Source: Eubacteriales bacterium (GTDB lineage Bacteria > Bacillota > Clostridia > Oscillospirales > CAG-272). From it: a DNA stretch of 64,000 bases. The stretch lies in the NCBI GenBank assembly GCA_045127235.1, contig JBGVPY010000046.1, forward strand, positions 29,047 through 93,046, given 5' to 3'. Positions within the stretch are counted from its first letter, which is position 1. Each line of letters opens with the position of its first letter. Made by a program: the position numbers and the translations under genes. The notes under the pieces were generated by a model, which was not told the origin of the DNA, did no database searches, and saw only the letters and a list, made by a program, of their open reading frames with translations. Of this stretch, positions 11,073-24,067 are shown one piece after another.

Positions 11073-11249
11073 TTCTACCTCGTTTTGTTATGATTTTTCA
11101 TTTTGATTTTAGCATACTTTTTCGTGTTTTTCAACTTTTTTAGAACAAATTTTATAGTAATAAAATATTTGTAAATTTTTGCATATTATTGTTGATTAAA
11201 TTAATCGCGTATGATATAATATAAAAAATTTTTATTCTTTAAGGAGAAA

Positions 11250-14200
11250 ATGACAATGAAGAAAAAACACTTACTTCGCAGTATTCTTGCGATTGCTTTG
11301 TGCATTTTAATGATTGGTACAGTCATTGCAGTTGGCTATACGATTTATGAAAATGTTCAAGGCAAAAAGGTAGTTATTGACAAGGACAACAACTTGCCTG
11401 TTGTTAAGCCTTCTAATGGTAGCGTATCTGCTCCTGTAACTACCGAAAACGGTTTAACTGTTAGCGACGTTACGTTAAAGACAAATAACGATGGCGTTTT
11501 AGCGGTTATTCCACAAGGCACAAAGCTTAACGATGGAGTTAAAGAGGTAACTCTTACCGTTAAGGAAATCAAGGACAGCCAAGCTAACATTAAGCTTGAG
11601 GATAACGAAGAAAAGGTTTCATACGATATTCATATTGAGGGCGTAGCAAATGACAACACCGCTCCAATTAAGGTTTACGTAAAGGAAATGTTACCTAGCG
11701 GTCTTAATATCGGTAACTACTCACTTTACCACGTAGAAAACGGCACAACAACTGCAATGACTGCCGTTAACGGCGAGGCTACACATAACAGCTTTGAGTA
11801 TGATGCGGTAACAGGCGACGTTACACTTTATCTTGCTTCATTCTCTGAGGTTGCATTAGTTGCTGATACAGAGAATGCTTGGAACGGTACTGTTGCTACT
11901 GCTTTTGCTAGTGGTACAGGTACAGAGAAAGATCCTTTCATCATCGCAAATGCAGACCAGTTGGCTTACTTCAGCAAAGTAGTTGGCGGTATGGACGGAT
12001 ATACACAAAATTCCTTCACAAAAGCGCATGTAAAATTAGTTGCTGATATCAACCTTGGTTACGGTGTAGAAAATCACACATACCAAATGTTTGAGCCAAT
12101 CGGTTATTACTACACAGATGATAAAAACGCTGATGGTACAAAGGGCGATTATTACAGCACAGTTAACTCCTTTGAAGGAACATTTGACGGTAACGGTCAT
12201 AAGGTTGCTAACTTCTACCAAAACACTTGGGAAATTAAGGGCGATTACGACGCTAACTACTACTCTGACGCTATGGGTCTTTTCGGTTATGTAGTTAACG
12301 GTAAAATCGAGAATTTAACTGTTGATAACTTCTCATCTGATGGCGAATTTACTCCTACCGGTGTTATTGCAGCTTATGCAGTTAACTCTACTTTTGAAAA
12401 TATTGCTATTACAGAATGTAATCCAAGAGTTTACAATACAGGTAACGGTGGTATCGTTGGTATCGGTGGTAACAGTGATGATCCAGACACATACGGGCTA
12501 ACATTTACAAACATTACAATAGACAACTCAAATAAAATCACTGCTCTTTGGGGCTCATGGGATGTTGCTTGTGGCGGTCTAGTTGGTATGTTCCGCGGTG
12601 CAGGTCATGCTTATATGACTAACTGCCACGTAGCTGCTCAAATTGATGTTTATAATGACGTATGCGGTAACTATCAATACTATTGGTACAGATATTCAGG
12701 TATGATGATCGGTACAAATAAAAACATGATTACCGATAAAGACGGATACACCGTTCCAGAAACTTCCAAATTCCATGCTGAGAACTGTACCGTTCATTTT
12801 GGTACATGGAACGACTACTACTATTGTGAATTAGTTGCTAATACACTTGCTTCTTATACACACGACCATCAATTCAGCCGTTTGGAGCAGGTTGATGCGG
12901 TTGACACAAATAGTATGACAATTACCGTTGGTAAAGAAACAACTACTATTCCTACAAATGGCAGATATAATTATGTTGTAGTAACTGCAAAAGAAGGCGA
13001 GGAGCAATCAACTGAAAAAGCAGTATGCTATCACTTTGTTGATGGCGAAGTTTGGACTCACGATGATGCAGGTACGGAGACAGTTAACGGACAAACCGTT
13101 CTTAAGGAAGACAACCAACATATTTATCTTCCATTCAACCAGCTCTTTACAGGCTATGGCTGGGGTGTAAAACACATTCCTGTTTATAACGGCGAAAATT
13201 ACGCTTTTGAAGGAATTACAATCCTTGACAGAGAGGTTGCAAATTCTGTTGAAAAGTTTGAGATCAACAACAAACTTGATAGTATAGCAACTGGAACAAC
13301 AATAACGGTTGGAGAATTATTCAAAGAAAAAGAGTCATTAAAACTCGCTATAAATAATAATACCGTATCTGTTTTCGTTTCTGCTATTGGTGAAAGCAGC
13401 ACCGCAAGTGCTATATACACACCAAACACGTCAGATTGGACCAAGGGCACTCTTGCTTTTGACGGATCTGGCAAAGCTCAAATTACAATTACTGACTACT
13501 ATTACTGTACAGAAACAACATACAATGTAACAGTTGGTACTCCTGAGTTTGCTAAAAAATTCAATGGTGATTTCCTCTATAGAGTAGGAAATGAAAACAC
13601 AGTTTCATTAGGCTCACTATTTGAAATTACTAACGGAAAGTTTAATAAAAACTTAAATGTAAGCATAACTGTATCTCAAATTGCTGGCACTTCATCTGGC
13701 AATTTCACAGCAAACACAGCCGCCGATTGGACACAAAGCACTATAAAATTCAATGATACCGGTGTTGTAAAAGTTGATCTTTCATACGGTGAAAACATAG
13801 TTACTACATTAAATCTTGAAGTTGTAAAAGCCAAGAATGTAACATCGGCTTCTTTCAGTGGAAATGTTGTTTTGTTAAATGATGTATCCACATCAAGCAC
13901 TTTAAGTGCAACCGGTGTAGTATATGGTAACGGCTTCACTGTTAATATGGAAAATGCTCCAATTTCAGAGAAAAACGGTGCTATATTCCATTTGTATGAC
14001 GGTGCGACTTTAAAAAATCTCAGCATCATTGGTAAGGAATTTACAAGCGTTGTTACAACTGTAAATAACACAAATTACGGTGTTTCTGTTGTAAGAGCTT
14101 GGGGTATAGCTACCATAGAAAATTGCTACATTTCAGGCTGTCGTTCAGCAGTTTCTGTAACTGGTTCAGAATTAACAATTAAAGACAGTGTAATCGCTAA

Positions 14201-16325
14201 TGGCGTTTATGCTAATATTGACTTTAGATCTGGTATTCTTAATTTACACAATGTTACTACTGTTAATGAACCACACAAGGTAGGTAATACTACTATTGTT
14301 GGTCTTGGTATCGTTGGTAATATGACCGCTTCTGCCGGAAGACAGTTGAATATTACTGGAACACTAACTCAGTATAACTGGGTTTCAAAAGCTGACTGTG
14401 AAAGCATTCAAACTACTGGCATTTCCGATATTTTCAATTCAGTATTTACAGATAACAAATACGCAAATCTTCGTTATACTTACAATGGCACAACATATGT
14501 TAACACAGGTATTCTATCACTTTGTAATGACTTCGGTGCAAGCTCTATAACAGGAGTTCCTTCCAATTATATAGGTATGGATGTTACTGCAACAATCGGT
14601 ACCACTGTTACTGGATATGTATGGGCACCTAGTCAAGCAAAAGAATTAACTAATGATGATATGCAATATCATGATAAAACATATGAATGGAAGGCTAGTA
14701 GCCAAGGAACATCATTTATTGCTCCTAGTTTCAATTATGAAAACGCCAATCTTGTAGCAGAAAACGACATAGTACAAATCGAGTATGAAAGCGGTAGCTC
14801 ATACACATTATCTGCTGCTATTATTAAGGCACTTCTTTCTGCTCAAAAATACGGACAGGCTTTATCTTACACAGTTACAATGAACGGTGCTGACTATACA
14901 GATAAAGACATTACATTTGATGCTACTTCTACACAAACATACACAATCGTTTATACAATTACAGATAATCTTGTTTATGACAAAGATGGAAAGCTAACAA
15001 ATACAACCTATGAAATAACAAAGAAATTAAATGTATTTGCTACTGTTGTTGATAAGGGTGCTGATGCTCCTACATTCAACTTCTATTATGGTACTAACGG
15101 TTCAGCAAGTGCTGGTTCACCTCATGTAAATCAGCCAACCAACTCTTATACAAGCAAAATTGAAACGATTGGTGAAGCATATTACATTATGCCTAATGTA
15201 AACGCAACATCAGCAAATGCAATCGGCTCAAAAACAGTTGACGGTATAACTGTTTATTATCCTATTGTGGATGGTATAAATGTTCGTTCAGGTAGCTCAA
15301 CTGATTACGATTTTATGAGATATTATCCAATTTTTAAGGCAGTTAAAATTTCTGACAACGACACTGAATATTCATATAGTGGAACAAAAGAAATGCCTGC
15401 AACAATTTCATGGCTAAGTGCTGAAATTGATAGTGGCAACGGTGCCTCCTCTTTAAATGACGGATTTGGACTTTATAATAATCAGTATTTATGTAAAATT
15501 CAGAAAAAGGCTGGCGATGCCGAGGCTGGTGGTACATCAATAGTCAAGTTCTCATACACAGCATTAGACGGTAATACTTACTATTATTATGTTGGATTTA
15601 GATTTTATGATGAGGATGAGGGAGGATTATGCATAACCCCCGATACACTTATCACACTTGCAGACGGCACACAGGTAAGAGTTGATAGCTTAACAGGTAA
15701 TGAAAATCTTCTTGTTTGGAATCACGAAACAGGTAAGTTTGACATAGCTCCTGTTGCATACATTGTAAATCACAGTGGAGAGTCAAGCAACACGGAAATC
15801 ATTCACTTATACTTCTCTAATGGTAGTGAAGTTAAGATTATTGGTGAGCATGTATTCTATGACGCAACTCTTAATAAATACATAGCCATTGACACCAACA
15901 ATGCTGGAGAATTTATCGGTCACAAGTTCCTTGGCTTAGGCGATAGCTCTCTAAGCGAGGTTGAATTAGTTGCAGTTGAAAGAACTGTTGAGGAAACTGA
16001 GGTTTACGAGGTTGTTTCATACAAGCATTTGACATGCTTTACAAATGGAATTCTTTCAACATCAGCATATCTTGACAAGTTATTAAATATCTTTGATATT
16101 GATACCGAAACATATGCTTACAATGCTGAATCAGTTCAAAAGGATATTGAAGCATACGGTCTATACACATATGCTGACTTTGAGGGATTAATTTCTGAGG
16201 AAGCATTTGAGTTATATAATGCTAAATATCTAAAAATAGCCGTTGGAAAAGGATACATTACTTGGGATGATATTCTTGACTTGATTGATATTTATTTCAA
16301 TGTTGATGTTCAACCTATTCAATAA
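11250..16325 (+). CDS. 1691-aa exported/surface protein: signal/TM, GLUG-like and beta-helix-like regions, C-terminal Hint domain and tail
   Basis: N-terminal KKKH plus hydrophobic stretch; GTGTEKDPFIIANADQL and FEGTFDGNGH motifs; Hint start CITPDTLITLADG at aa 1461 (nt 15630); SD AAGGAG. Confidence 0.88.
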   Translation: MTMKKKHLLRSILAIALCILMIGTVIAVGYTIYENVQGKKVVIDKDNNLPVVKPSNGSVSAPVTTENGLTVSDVTLKTNNDGVLAVIPQGTKLNDGVKEVTLTVKEIKDSQANIKLEDNEEKVSYDIHIEGVANDNTAPIKVYVKEMLPSGLNIGNYSLYHVENGTTTAMTAVNGEATHNSFEYDAVTGDVTLYLASFSEVALVADTENAWNGTVATAFASGTGTEKDPFIIANADQLAYFSKVVGGMDGYTQNSFTKAHVKLVADINLGYGVENHTYQMFEPIGYYYTDDKNADGTKGDYYSTVNSFEGTFDGNGHKVANFYQNTWEIKGDYDANYYSDAMGLFGYVVNGKIENLTVDNFSSDGEFTPTGVIAAYAVNSTFENIAITECNPRVYNTGNGGIVGIGGNSDDPDTYGLTFTNITIDNSNKITALWGSWDVACGGLVGMFRGAGHAYMTNCHVAAQIDVYNDVCGNYQYYWYRYSGMMIGTNKNMITDKDGYTVPETSKFHAENCTVHFGTWNDYYYCELVANTLASYTHDHQFSRLEQVDAVDTNSMTITVGKETTTIPTNGRYNYVVVTAKEGEEQSTEKAVCYHFVDGEVWTHDDAGTETVNGQTVLKEDNQHIYLPFNQLFTGYGWGVKHIPVYNGENYAFEGITILDREVANSVEKFEINNKLDSIATGTTITVGELFKEKESLKLAINNNTVSVFVSAIGESSTASAIYTPNTSDWTKGTLAFDGSGKAQITITDYYYCTETTYNVTVGTPEFAKKFNGDFLYRVGNENTVSLGSLFEITNGKFNKNLNVSITVSQIAGTSSGNFTANTAADWTQSTIKFNDTGVVKVDLSYGENIVTTLNLEVVKAKNVTSASFSGNVVLLNDVSTSSTLSATGVVYGNGFTVNMENAPISEKNGAIFHLYDGATLKNLSIIGKEFTSVVTTVNNTNYGVSVVRAWGIATIENCYISGCRSAVSVTGSELTIKDSVIANGVYANIDFRSGILNLHNVTTVNEPHKVGNTTIVGLGIVGNMTASAGRQLNITGTLTQYNWVSKADCESIQTTGISDIFNSVFTDNKYANLRYTYNGTTYVNTGILSLCNDFGASSITGVPSNYIGMDVTATIGTTVTGYVWAPSQAKELTNDDMQYHDKTYEWKASSQGTSFIAPSFNYENANLVAENDIVQIEYESGSSYTLSAAIIKALLSAQKYGQALSYTVTMNGADYTDKDITFDATSTQTYTIVYTITDNLVYDKDGKLTNTTYEITKKLNVFATVVDKGADAPTFNFYYGTNGSASAGSPHVNQPTNSYTSKIETIGEAYYIMPNVNATSANAIGSKTVDGITVYYPIVDGINVRSGSSTDYDFMRYYPIFKAVKISDNDTEYSYSGTKEMPATISWLSAEIDSGNGASSLNDGFGLYNNQYLCKIQKKAGDAEAGGTSIVKFSYTALDGNTYYYYVGFRFYDEDEGGLCITPDTLITLADGTQVRVDSLTGNENLLVWNHETGKFDIAPVAYIVNHSGESSNTEIIHLYFSNGSEVKIIGEHVFYDATLNKYIAIDTNNAGEFIGHKFLGLGDSSLSEVELVAVERTVEETEVYEVVSYKHLTCFTNGILSTSAYLDKLLNIFDIDTETYAYNAESVQKDIEAYGLYTYADFEGLISEEAFELYNAKYLKIAVGKGYITWDDILDLIDIYFNVDVQPIQ

Positions 16326-16338
16326 CAAATAATATAAC

Positions 16339-16366
16339 AAAAACCTTGCTTCGTGCAAGGTTTTTT
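16339..16366. terminator. Terminator after the Hint-domain gene
   Basis: aaaaaccttgc-ttcgt-gcaaggtttttt. Confidence 0.8.
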
Positions 16367-16369
16367 GTT

Positions 16370-16414
16370 TGTTATGCTGAGATTATGTAGGCTTTCAATG
16401 GGAATGAGCCTATT
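16370..16414 (-). pseudogene. Orphan duplicate of the last 13 codons of the cupin gene
   Basis: 28-bp exact repeat (16370-16397 = 16487-16514) extended by a diverged stretch; encodes IGSFPLKAYIISA* versus IGSFPMKAYIISA*. Confidence 0.7.
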
Positions 16415-16488: not shown

Positions 16489-16806
16489 TTATGCTGAGAT
16501 TATGTAGGCTTTCATTGGAAATGATCCGATGTTGATGATGTTATAGTAGGTGGACCTTGGGATTATGAGCATTTGGCCGCTTTCGGCTCTTTCGCGCAGG
16601 TCGGAGCAGTTTTCATCCGAGCCTAAATATACAGCGCATTTGCCGTTTTCAATTTTGATTAGTTGCTCTGCTTCGTGGTTAATTTTTAGTCCTGTGTCCT
16701 GTCGTGGCATTATGCTTATTAGATCAATTTTCATTTTGTCCCCTTGCCATAGGTTGTTTTCAAAGTTTTTGTTGGTTTTAACTAAATCCTTAATATTTAA
16801 AATCAT
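16489..16806 (-). CDS. Cupin-fold protein (degenerate)
   Basis: N-N-F-x-x-x-LW, EQLIKIENG and IPRSTYYNIINIG resemble clostridial cupin_2 proteins, but the metal-binding His residues are partly lost; SD GGGAG. Confidence 0.65.
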   Translation of the reverse strand: MILNIKDLVKTNKNFENNLWQGDKMKIDLISIMPRQDTGLKINHEAEQLIKIENGKCAVYLGSDENCSDLRERAESGQMLIIPRSTYYNIINIGSFPMKAYIISA

Positions 16807-22051: not shown

Positions 22052-24067
22052 TTAATAGTCAAGCTCCCATCCGTAAATCACATATTGTGATGGGCTTAAT
22101 CTTTGAACCCAGGTTGTAAGTGATGAAGGAACTTCAAAATATATCATGATTTTCTTAACTGCTGATAGTGCATTTGCCTCAATATACTTCACTTCTTTGG
22201 GGATATATATTTCTTCAATAGTTGTATTTGGACTTCCGCCCTCATGAAAATAGGTGGCTATTTTGTATTCTTCTCCGTTAAAGCTACGAGGTAATTTAAC
22301 CACAGGATTGCTTCCTACATACTGAATTAAGTAATTCACACTATCTATCTTAGCAAAAACAAACCCATCGTTTGTTTCTGTTATTATGCTTGGCTCATCC
22401 AATGACTTATGAACAATCCTTGCATACTTGCCTACACCACCAGTACCATAGCCATCACCAGCTGTAATTCCTTTATTCTCTGCATACACCTCAATGAGAT
22501 GGTAGCAAAGTGTGAATGTGTTGTTATATGGGAAATATGTACTGTTAGATAGTTTTACTGACTTTAGGTTGGTACAGTATGAAAATGCATGCTTGTCAAT
22601 CCAACTGCAATCTATTTGTGCATATTCCAGTCCACTCTCTTCAAAGGCGTGCGCACTTATTTCGCTACTATATCCATTGTACTCCATGGTTAAATTTTTT
22701 ATCGATTTACAACCAGCAAACACATACGGTCTAATCATTGTAATATCCTTGGTTATATGCAAATCGGTTAAAAGCTCATCATTCAAATACATATCATAAG
22801 AAACTCCAAAAAACATTTCGCCCTCAGGTAAAGCATAAGGTGTTTCCACATTGCACCAGCTTTTTAGATCGTTTATATAAATTCTTTCAAGATAACGGCA
22901 GGAAGTGAATGTACCGGAAAATATTTGTAAAAGTGTTGACGGTAATCTAACAACCTTTAAATTGAAGCAATTAAAGTTTATATCGCCAATCTTTTCCACT
23001 CCCTCGGGGATAATAAGCTCTGTAACTGCATCTGAATTTATCCTTCTTACCTCGGTTACAGGATATTTTGTTGTTTCCCCCTTAGGTGTATAGTATGGGC
23101 TTATTGATACAACAGTATTTGTGCCATTATAACCTGACACATATGCTTTACCATTATAAATATCGTATATTACTCCATCTGTGTAGTGTTCCTTATCACA
23201 TCTTACACATATTTCGTTATCGTACGCGTGTCCGAATGCTACTACGCCATCCTTGTATTTTTCGGTGTTGCACACGCTACATTTTTTGTATAGCACCTCT
23301 GTTTCTGTACAGGTAGCAGGAGTTTTTGTGTGCCAAAAGCTTGAAAGCTTATGTTCAATTACTATCTCGCCCTCTTTTGTTTCCTTTTCGCCGCACTCCG
23401 AGCATTCACGCTCTAATATTTGTGGAGTATTGCAGGTTCCTTTGTCAATTTCTGCCCACTCACTCCAGCTGTGGTTGATAACCGGAATGTCAATGTCAGT
23501 ATCGGTGTCAGTATCTGTGTCTGAGCTTGTATCGCCGTTTGTCTCTGTATTGGTATCTACATTTATGTCTGTATTGGTATCTGTGTTTGTGTCGGCTTCT
23601 GTATCCGTATCAGCGTTAGTATCAAAATCAACAACGTTGTCTGTGTTTGTATTTAGAATTGTATCTGTATCGGTGGAATTATCGTTAATAAATAATGTGC
23701 CTATAAGAATTGCAAGAGCAAGTGCTACACATATTGCTATGGAAATTATAATAATTGATTTTTTGCTCATACTCTTTTCTGTTTCATTTTGTTCATTATC
23801 AATATCTGAATTATCATTATCTAAAGTATCATTTGGCTCTTGATTGTCATTGAAATATTCCTTTAAATCAATGCTATCATCTAACAACAGATTATAAGAA
23901 ATATCAAGAATATCCGCAAGCCTTTCAATTTTATTAAATTCAGGTGTATTGAGGTCTGCTTCCCACTTATAGATTGTTTGACGGGACACTCCCATTTTCT
24001 TGGCTAATCTATCCTGTGAAATTTTTCGCTTTTTTCTCATATACACAATTTTTTCAGAAAACTTCAT
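22052..24067 (-). CDS. XRE HTH - TM - Asp/Thr linker - Cys repeats - BspA-type LRR fusion protein
   Basis: MRKKRKISQDRLAKKMGVSRQTIYKWE; TM IIIISIAICVALALAILIGTLFI; DTDTDT linker; TC...C..C repeats; IPEGVEKIG-type LRRs. Confidence 0.88.
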   Translation of the reverse strand: MKFSEKIVYMRKKRKISQDRLAKKMGVSRQTIYKWEADLNTPEFNKIERLADILDISYNLLLDDSIDLKEYFNDNQEPNDTLDNDNSDIDNEQNETEKSMSKKSIIIISIAICVALALAILIGTLFINDNSTDTDTILNTNTDNVVDFDTNADTDTEADTNTDTNTDINVDTNTETNGDTSSDTDTDTDTDIDIPVINHSWSEWAEIDKGTCNTPQILERECSECGEKETKEGEIVIEHKLSSFWHTKTPATCTETEVLYKKCSVCNTEKYKDGVVAFGHAYDNEICVRCDKEHYTDGVIYDIYNGKAYVSGYNGTNTVVSISPYYTPKGETTKYPVTEVRRINSDAVTELIIPEGVEKIGDINFNCFNLKVVRLPSTLLQIFSGTFTSCRYLERIYINDLKSWCNVETPYALPEGEMFFGVSYDMYLNDELLTDLHITKDITMIRPYVFAGCKSIKNLTMEYNGYSSEISAHAFEESGLEYAQIDCSWIDKHAFSYCTNLKSVKLSNSTYFPYNNTFTLCYHLIEVYAENKGITAGDGYGTGGVGKYARIVHKSLDEPSIITETNDGFVFAKIDSVNYLIQYVGSNPVVKLPRSFNGEEYKIATYFHEGGSPNTTIEEIYIPKEVKYIEANALSAVKKIMIYFEVPSSLTTWVQRLSPSQYVIYGWELDY

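Follow-up and report, generated by a model that had tools for sequence, protein, structure and literature searches.

The last 231 residues of a predicted 1,691-residue exported protein, P0001, appear to form a self-contained, single-turnover autoprocessing cassette, in which a Hint domain is followed by an acidic helical domain of 86 residues (here called the tail). We put the probability of this reading at roughly 0.6. P0001 is encoded in a 64,000-nucleotide (nt) stretch of the Eubacteriales bacterium assembly GCA_045127235.1 (contig JBGVPY010000046.1, positions 29,047 to 93,046; Oscillospirales, CAG-272). This whole stretch is referred to as the window, and nucleotide coordinates are those of the window (Table 1).

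In the translation, Cys1461 directly follows ...DEDEGGL, and the sequence then reads CITPDTLITLADGTQVRVDSL. The last 251 amino acids (aa) of P0001 were modeled with AlphaFold2 on 36 family sequences, which gave a predicted local distance difference test score (pLDDT) of 90.6 and a predicted template modeling score (pTM) of 0.86. Foldseek searches with this model returned 64 PDB matches at E ≤ 0.001, and those listed are inteins, bacterial intein-like (BIL) domains, and Hedgehog Hint domains (Tetrahymena BIL2 6y75, E = 3e-9; Hedgehog 1at0, E = 1.9e-7; 6TYY, E of about 2e-7; Clostridium thermocellum BIL domain 2lwy, E = 2.6e-7). A VIA-align search was run all against representatives, and 30 chains scored at Z ≥ 8. 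These included the NpuDnaB intein 4o1r (Z 17.6), Hedgehog 1at0 (Z 17.3, with a root mean square deviation of 2.0 Å over 139 of 145 residues), BIL2 6tmm (Z 17.3), and the C. thermocellum BIL domain 2lwy (Z 16.9); the Z values of the intein, Hedgehog, and BIL neighbors (16.9 to 17.6) are tied. On the predicted structure, aa 1461 to 1605 of P0001 is a genuine Hint fold, far beyond chance.

Sequence profiles stayed below threshold for P0001, and the Hint assignment was settled because of the predicted structure. TIGR01445 matched at E = 0.0087 (17.0 bits against a cut-off of 24.5), PF14890 at E = 0.018 (15.3 bits against 35.8), and the Hedgehog/Hog profile PF01079, run on the cassette, at E = 0.12 (12.4 bits against a gathering cut-off of 29.7). 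The PT-HINT (PF07591) and Hint_2 profiles gave no match at E ≤ 10, and PDB sequence searches with the module, the module profile, and the whole protein returned only the DnaB intein 4o1r at E values of 0.4 to 0.8. PF01079 was the Pfam Hint-type profile touched most often across the family, reaching E ≤ 0.01 in 14 of 36 members (best, 8.3e-9), while the Intein_splicing profile was touched by 4 of the 36. When 12 members were scanned singly, PF01079 matched 6, all below 29.7 bits, and its matches spanned at most profile positions 5 to 150 of 213, so that the C-terminal part of the profile was not reached. An earlier note on this DNA had placed a Hedgehog-like Hint module at the C terminus of the 1,691-aa protein, and AlphaFold2, Foldseek, and VIA-align agree on this placement; membership in the Hint families held at the level of predicted structure (Z of about 17) and failed at that of sequence profiles, which remained under their cut-offs. 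What that note had read from the letters, namely, the start at Cys1461 (position 15630), the DEDEGGL linker, and blocks A, B, and F/G, proved exact by translation, and the lack of a TxxH Thr and of a terminal His-Asn was confirmed both in P0001 and across its relatives.

Conservation was assessed in a family set of 230 proteins (the listed relatives plus P0001), of which 229 were aligned after P0038, missing the start of its Hint domain, was dropped, and in a distant set of 21 modules with 33 to 50% identity from sampled genomes. Both Cys1461 and the block-B residue His1534 are present in 229/229 relatives and in 21/21 distant modules. Conservation among the 229 sequences is also high at Glu1533 (218), Phe1536 (227), Leu1602 (225), and Ser1603 (221). 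After the conserved Leu-Ser, positions 1604 and 1605 are M/T/A and S/P, respectively, and never His-Asn in the 229 sequences; P0001 itself ends its Hint domain with ...NGILSTS. The residue preceding Cys1 (position −1) is mostly small (S in 68, G in 52, T in 30, and P in 17, plus others). Position 1508, a candidate by collinearity with 1at0 for the equivalent of D46/D303, is H in 142, D in 50, and E in 35 sequences, i.e., in 227 of 229. A second Cys in block F occurs at 1595 or 1596 in 203 of the 229 close relatives and in few of the 21 distant modules; its scarcity in the latter indicates that it is not essential, and it was rejected as an analogue of the Cys in the Hedgehog SCYA motif. The median net charge of the Hint domain in the family is −14. 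A homodimer prediction with two copies of the 251-aa module scored 0.00 against a mark of 0.42, which is no evidence either way.

The tail is conserved to the same degree as the Hint domain. Across 4,000 randomly drawn pairs, identity averaged 0.521 in the tail and 0.517 in the Hint domain, and columns conserved at 90% or more numbered 14 of 80 and 33 of 145, respectively. D1632 (99%), Y1636 (100%), G1637 (100%), K1667 (100%), and G1668 (96%) are fixed or nearly so among the 229 sequences. In the distant modules, the D, Y, and G are each present in 21/21, and the position of K1667 is K in 19/21 and R in 2/21. Judged from the alignment, invariant polar residues such as D1632, Y1636, G1637, and K1667 are what a site, and not a spacer, would typically show. 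Modeled alone with AlphaFold2, the tail reached a pLDDT of 88.3 and comprised five short helices, which agrees with the further helical tail suggested by the earlier note; its median net charge in the family is −11. No Pfam or NCBIfam profile matched it at E ≤ 10 or E ≤ 1, tail-alone Foldseek gave no fold match (best E, 7.9), tail-alone VIA-align against 48,161 chains reached a best Z of 3.4, and an ESM Atlas search with the tail gave a best score of 0.85, under the meaningful level. The predicted tail fold is thus unmatched among solved structures, which does not prove it new.

Separate local searches with each part found both Hint and tail in 230/230 proteins, 7 of which carry more than 25 further residues beyond the tail. 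Of 24 matches in Clostridia genomes, 23 span Hint and tail, and the remaining one is a weak Hint-only match (E = 8e-4). Across these sequences, the Hint-tail pairing was shown to be obligate. The proteins preceding the cassette are diverse: for 82 of the 229 relatives, the part shared with the P0001 passenger exceeds 700 aa, and for 95 it is below 200 aa. N termini were classed as SipW/TasA type (35), prepilin type (27), dockerin (11), other hydrophobic (105), and unclear or partial (51). In a tree of the 229 modules built with FastTree, the N-terminal class changed at least 39 times (100 shuffles: mean, 67; minimum, 59), and passenger class changed at least 19 times among 139 labeled rows (shuffled mean, 44; minimum, 36), with 90 rows left out as too short or intermediate; these counts are minimum numbers of swaps and not a test, as related sequences share labels. 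The pairing and exchange counts thus upheld the idea of a tail that invariably accompanies Hint across diverse passengers.

DNA comparisons placed a boundary at the same point. In 6 of 15 related loci, the point where homology to the gene resumes is precisely the Cys codon (gene nt 4380/4381), and the contigs of some relatives from other sequencing runs part from the window just 5′ of this codon. These comparisons showed a modular boundary at the Cys codon of the gene sequence. P0155 is about 97% identical to P0001 over the first ~240 aa, about 50% identical in the body, and 87% identical in the cassette, a mosaic that suggests recombination among family members. Searches of Pfam, NCBIfam, and PDB sequences found nothing matching the P0001 passenger; the cassette-bearing relatives P0019 and P0203 carry a precomputed Beta_helix (PF13229) annotation. 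The head of the passenger (aa 215 to 660) has 1,131 homologues at E ≤ 1e-10, and of the best 120, 83 terminate in the cassette, which the other 37 lack. Cassette-bearing homologues of the head include proteins with an N-terminal SLH domain (P0262, P0280, and P0290) or an N-terminal dockerin (P0234). Those without a cassette end in an F5/8-type-C domain (P0308), in Ig-like or Flg_new repeats, or in an unassigned beta-rich domain, and an LPxTG-like motif is absent from the last 80 aa of all 37. Recognizable anchoring devices thus appear to be N terminal, with the cassette at the opposite end.

A HMMER pass with the last 251 aa of P0001 over 1.84 billion cluster representatives matched 2,934 at E ≤ 1e-3, 2,082 at E ≤ 1e-10, and 1,336 at E ≤ 1e-30. 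In the best 150 of the 2,934, for which match details were obtained, the match usually begins at position −1 relative to the Cys and continues across the tail, and it lies at the extreme C terminus of host proteins 256 to 5,191 aa long. The relatives are named "hypothetical protein" and come from Clostridia, Oscillospiraceae, or Ruminococcaceae metagenome-assembled genomes. By these matches, large surface proteins of gut Clostridia that end in the cassette appear to number in the thousands. The window's own genome (2.74 Mb, 90.7% complete) carries one copy. Cassettes were found in 3 of 24 genomes of the same genus, with only about 40% identity, in 0 of 16 genomes of other families of the order, in 15 of 399 genomes (8 of 217 genera) of the class Clostridia, a count that includes the window's genome and leaves two genomes unscored, and in 0 of 400 further genomes of the phylum. 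The whole stretch was found in one sequencing run only, its likely source. Two metatranscriptome contig sets of bovine gut, and also two DNA runs, contain pieces lying only within 15402 to 16325, at 90 to 98% likeness; these are the cassettes of relatives and reach from the final portion of the passenger to the gene end. Being contigs from RNA libraries, the metatranscriptome pieces provide no evidence of transcription, and they have no bearing on expression of the P0001 gene itself.

These results suggested how the cassette would work. After export of P0001 through its N-terminal hydrophobic signal or anchor, the thiol of Cys1461, aided by His1534, would attack the carbonyl of Leu1460 in an N-to-S acyl shift, leaving the passenger held by a thioester. 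An outside nucleophile would then resolve the thioester to give the 1,460-aa passenger and a 26-kDa Hint-tail fragment. The tail would control this resolution, either by gating or accelerating hydrolysis or by positioning a particular nucleophile, in parallel with the role of the sterol-recognition or adduct-recognition region (SRR/ARR) of Hedgehog/Hog proteins. We infer every chemical step from sequence and model. Taken together, the Hint fold with its invariant Cys1 and His and the lack of His-Asn point to an N-to-S acyl shift followed by an external nucleophile: because both the terminal His-Asn and a downstream extein nucleophile are missing, splicing and C-terminal cleavage should be impossible, and an outside nucleophile would therefore be needed to resolve the thioester. 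A mere leaving group would not need the invariant Asp, Tyr, Gly, and Lys of the tail, and the tail is accordingly the candidate for the second step. Cleavage between residues 1460 and 1461 probably occurs, judging from the conserved residues and the modeled fold. The chance that the nucleophile is water or a small thiol (hydrolysis or thiolysis) is just short of even, and transfer to a specific acceptor is possible at somewhat longer odds, so that we lean slightly toward hydrolysis or thiolysis. A functional precedent is the self-processing module of Neisseria FrpC, in which cleavage of a secreted protein is coupled to covalent cross-linking.

Among known systems, the cassette belongs with the HINT superfamily by its modeled beta-fold of pseudo-twofold symmetry, first-residue Cys nucleophile, and block-B His, and it falls outside class 1 inteins, since it has neither a terminal His-Asn nor a +1 Cys/Ser/Thr and its profile scores lie below the cut-off. 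BIL domains (C. thermocellum 2LWY; Tetrahymena BUBL BIL2 6Y75/6TMM) are, like the cassette, nonsplicing Hint domains in secreted proteins and are among its top structural neighbors. According to the available part of PMC7664689, BIL domains undergo both N- and C-terminal cleavage, yield cleavage products with water as the nucleophile, and can be turned into a splicing domain by one mutation; cleavage is likewise the expected outcome where there is no +1 nucleophile (PMC7664689). The cassette differs in that His-Asn is absent from all 229 sequences and in that a conserved domain, not the rest of the host protein, lies downstream; the Asn for C-terminal cleavage is missing, while N-terminal cleavage is plausible from the residues present. 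C-terminal Hint-like domains in secreted proteobacterial and myxobacterial proteins have been reported (Burglin 2008, PMC2362128; Dassa and Pietrokovski). The accessible portion of Burglin 2008 names Stigmatella, Myxococcus, Photorhabdus, Serratia, Yersinia, and Reinekea, not Clostridia, and mentions no conserved tail; on this description, these domains appear distinct from the cassette. BIL/HintN modules of clostridial proteins are noted in cellulosome papers, which do not study them further. A literature search, thin on subscription journals, found no description of the Hint-tail cassette. Hint domains are known, but, as far as this search shows, an obligate Hint-plus-tail unit ending thousands of gut-bacterial surface proteins has not previously been described.

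In its layout, the cassette works most like the Hog domain (PF01079; 1AT0), by analogy. Both combine a Hint fold at the extreme C terminus of an exported protein with Cys1, the block-B His, no C-terminal Asn, and a conserved helical extension after the Hint domain, and in the part of PMC9163320 available, Hedgehog is described as performing the N-S acyl shift only, after which a nucleophile bound by the SRR (cholesterol) takes over. The differences are that the tail is an acidic, compact five-helix domain whereas the SRR is a hydrophobic helix-loop-helix (as described in that part of PMC9163320), that the cassette lacks the TxxH Thr, and that its −1 residue is S, G, or T (Leu in P0001) and not always Gly. 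In neither sequence nor fold was the tail found to resemble the SRR portion of PF01079 or any chain of solved structure. As the cassette is bacterial, no sterol acceptor is expected.

The surroundings of related genes bear on what the thioester might meet. The loci compared were 15 close ones (found with a 9-row alignment, all close relatives) and 10 more distant ones. Small TasA/camelysin-like proteins share operons with the cassette-bearing giant in 8 of the 15 close loci (L007, L008, L010, L011, L013, L014, L016, and L017); SipW-like signal peptidases occur in 7 (L007, L008, L010, L011, L017, L018, and L019) and LPxTG-like proteins in 3 (L010, L016, and L017). Genes of these three kinds were found neither in the 10 distant loci nor beside the window's gene; being missing from the distant loci, they go with a passenger subfamily and not with the cassette. 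The window's gene may have lost, or never had, a TasA/SipW operon setting, as its surroundings suggest. In the window's genome (90.7% complete), neither sortase (PF04203) nor a SipW/archaeal-type signal peptidase (TIGR02228) was found. A conserved partner gene was considered and rejected, as none recurs across all related loci; with no recurring partner gene and with its own promoter-like site and terminator, the cassette appears to be autonomous. Some close loci carry a second large paralogue 5′ of the cassette-bearing giant. In one other genus (contigs G245:C5 and G164:C64; loci L021 and L022), three cassette-bearing giants stand in tandem within 12 to 15 kb, and those of L021 adjoin genes that by eye are of capsule type (tyrosine kinase, chain-length regulator, and phosphatase).

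Several points weigh against a self-processing cassette. Every curated Hint or intein profile scores P0001 below its cut-off; the Thr of the block-B TxxH motif is absent, the residue three before the His (position 1531) being Ile in 206 of 229 sequences; the −1 Leu of P0001 is rare in the family (8 sequences), and so bulky a residue might slow the reaction; position 1508 is mostly hydrophobic in the 21 distant modules, so that no equivalent of the Hedgehog general base D46 can be placed; and the present results do not distinguish hydrolysis from transfer to an acceptor. The missing Thr, the bulky −1 residue, and the subthreshold scores would also suit a degenerate Hint domain, kept for structure or binding without cleavage, in which case the whole 1,691-aa protein would be the mature form. 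This is contradicted by the invariance of Cys1 and the block-B His down to 33% identity, which an inactive domain would not keep, and we regard it as very improbable. Hardly credible is a polymorphic toxin, in which a pretoxin HINT domain would free the tail as a small toxin. HINT peptidases directly before C-terminal toxin domains are described as common in secreted bacterial toxins in the accessible part of Zhang et al. 2012 (PMC3482391), and the cassette shares with them a Hint peptidase near the C terminus of large secreted proteins. However, the tail is one family with invariant residues (mean pairwise identity, 0.52), PF07591 has no match, no codirectional immunity-like gene follows (a terminator is followed by a minus-strand cupin gene), and with no terminal Asn nothing can cut between Hint and tail, which argues against toxin release.

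If the thioester is passed to an acceptor rather than hydrolyzed, the acceptor might lie on the producing cell or beyond it. The earlier note favored the former: Hedgehog-like ligation would join the passenger to whichever lipid, glycan, or wall component of the producing cell is chosen by the tail, and the C terminus of the passenger, esterified or amidated, would serve as a sortase-independent covalent anchor. The Hint domain with its conserved C-terminal helical extension does parallel the Hint plus SRR/ARR of Hog, as far as the available parts of PMC9163320 and PMC2362128 describe it, and the tail has invariant polar residues. As the note had observed, P0001 has no LPxTG-like motif near its C terminus, no SLH domain by Pfam, and no C-terminal transmembrane or other hydrophobic segment by hydropathy and sequence scans, which, like the failure to find a sortase, would leave room for such an anchor. 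The proposal nevertheless fared badly: homologues that carry the cassette on the same passenger are already anchored N terminally by SLH domains or a dockerin, the family's N termini include the dockerin, prepilin, and SipW/TasA types, and the 37 cassette-less homologues end in Ig-like, F5/8-type-C, or unassigned beta-rich domains and never in LPxTG-like motifs. The strongly acidic module (−11 for the tail and −14 for Hint) is a poor fit to anionic wall polymers, lipid II, or membranes, and the Hedgehog-like route finds no homology to a sterol-recognition region, as Hedgehog profile matches stop by position 150 of 213 and the tail has no fold match. Anchoring to the cell's own surface is therefore improbable. 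Sortase itself offers a comparison, in that it too forms an acyl-thioester, resolvable by an amine, at the C terminus of the mature part of a surface protein; it is a separate enzyme acting on an LPXTG motif with a transmembrane segment and basic tail, whereas the thioester of the cassette is predicted to be intramolecular and single turnover, and P0001 has none of the marks of a sortase substrate. The warhead-like alternative is that the giant is held N terminally and that the thioester at its distal tip is passed, with the help of the tail, to a nucleophile of an external target, be it a glycan, a polymer of host or plant origin, another cell, or a Lys in a neighboring matrix protein, resulting in covalent adhesion or cross-linking. 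All recognizable anchors of the family are N terminal (SLH, dockerin, prepilin-type and TasA-type heads, or a lone hydrophobic segment), the C-terminal place is otherwise taken by binding-type modules such as the F5/8-type-C domain of P0308 and the Ig-like and beta-rich ends, and the TasA/camelysin-like, SipW-like, and LPxTG-like neighbors mark the close loci as fibre or matrix loci. Reactive thioesters for covalent adhesion are reportedly known in Gram-positive adhesins. This alternative fits the polarity of the protein better than anchoring to the producing cell does. It rests on context, the window's own locus has no fibre genes and its genome no detected SipW, and no precedent was found for aminolysis or alcoholysis of a Hint thioester by an extracellular macromolecule, so that it too is unlikely. 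The broader proposal, that the cassette is a bacterial counterpart of Hog, a built-in, single-use protein ligase at the far tip whose tail chooses the nucleophile on a target, is tentative, with the odds clearly against it.

The gene of P0001 stands alone, as judged by its own terminator and by flanking genes that lie on the minus strand on both sides. A promoter-like site lies about 30 nt 5′ of its start codon, and the genes 5′ of it encode a glycoside hydrolase family 127 (GH127) arabinofuranosidase and radical-SAM/SPASM protein, both on the minus strand. By a Kyte-Doolittle scan, the sole hydrophobic segment of P0001 lies at about aa 6 to 34, and aa 1 to 34 align with the degenerate end of the SipW/TasA-type signals of homologues; P0001 lacks the TasA-like head seen in homologues such as P0050 and has a plain hydrophobic segment instead. 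The 3′ end of the cupin open reading frame (16489 to 16528) is repeated at 16372 to 16411, just past the terminator, with 36 of 40 bases identical, and this looks like a small duplication scar.

Table 1. Features of the P0001 gene and its flanks in window coordinates
Feature	Position	Strand	Basis or remark
Promoter-like site TTGATT-17-TATAAT, with TG before −10	11192..11220	+	Consensus scan, 10/12 matches; pattern match only
Open reading frame P0001, 1,691 aa	11250..16325	+	Translation; N-terminal hydrophobic segment, ~1,420-aa passenger, Hint, tail
N-terminal segment, aa 1-34, basic n-region plus hydrophobic stretch; signal peptide or signal anchor	11250..11351	+	Kyte-Doolittle scan, homologue N termini
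Passenger, aa 35-1460, beta-helix-like head (~aa 215-660) plus variable body	11352..15629	+	Homologue and profile searches
Linker DEDEGGL, aa 1454-1460, with Leu1460 at position −1 of the bond predicted to be cut	15609..15629	+	Translation
Hint domain, aa 1461-1605; Cys1461 (15630-15632) predicted nucleophile	15630..16064	+	AlphaFold2, Foldseek, VIA-align, conservation
Block-B His1534 codon, KIIGEH, motif E-H-x-F; no Thr at H-3 (Ile)	15849..15851	+	Conservation
Blocks F/G, aa 1585-1605, VYEVVSYKHLTCFTNGILSTS; no His-Asn, second Cys at 1596	16002..16064	+	Conservation
Tail, aa 1606-1691, 86 aa, acidic (17 D/E, 5 K/R), five short helices	16065..16322	+	AlphaFold2, conservation
Tail motif D1632-I-E-A-Y1636-G1637	16143..16160	+	Conserved like the catalytic residues
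Tail K1667-G1668	16248..16253	+	Conservation
Terminator-like hairpin, 11 pairs, T-run on both strands (two-way)	16339..16365		14 nt past the stop codon
Small cupin gene	16489..16806	−	Next gene 3′ of the Hint open reading frame

Other genes of the window are recorded here as observations in their own right. The radical-SAM/SPASM protein (7814 to 9187, minus strand; Pfam match) had no NCBIfam equivalog above its cut-off, and its gene overlaps the start of that for a 366-aa membrane protein without a family match. The latter, within the region 6772 to 9187 (minus strand), ends in a Gly-flanked alternating Cys-Ala run, ...GGGCACACACACACAGGG..., and the pair may represent a maturase and a tail that is rich in Cys and substrate-like. 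The window also encodes two leucine-rich-repeat proteins of the BspA type (PF13306), at 5304 to 5951 and 22052 to 24067, both on the minus strand, and the larger (22052 to 24067) has an N-terminal helix-turn-helix, an acidic Thr/Asp-rich linker, and a membrane segment.

What the cassette means for these bacteria depends on the fate of the thioester. If it only cuts itself off, it would represent a widespread, unannotated maturation step of giant adhesin-like proteins in uncultured Oscillospiraceae and other Clostridia of animal guts. If the tail selects an acceptor, the cassette would add a covalent attachment chemistry that is new and lies outside the sortase paradigm; it would also be a candidate tool, compact in size, for labeling or ligating proteins at their C termini and a bacterial analogue that could bear on the origin of the eukaryotic Hog domain, a question left open in the accessible part of Burglin 2008 (PMC2362128). 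Finally, if it is a ligase at the distal tip, it would provide a covalent adhesion or cross-linking chemistry new for bacteria, perhaps related by evolution to Hedgehog cholesterolysis.

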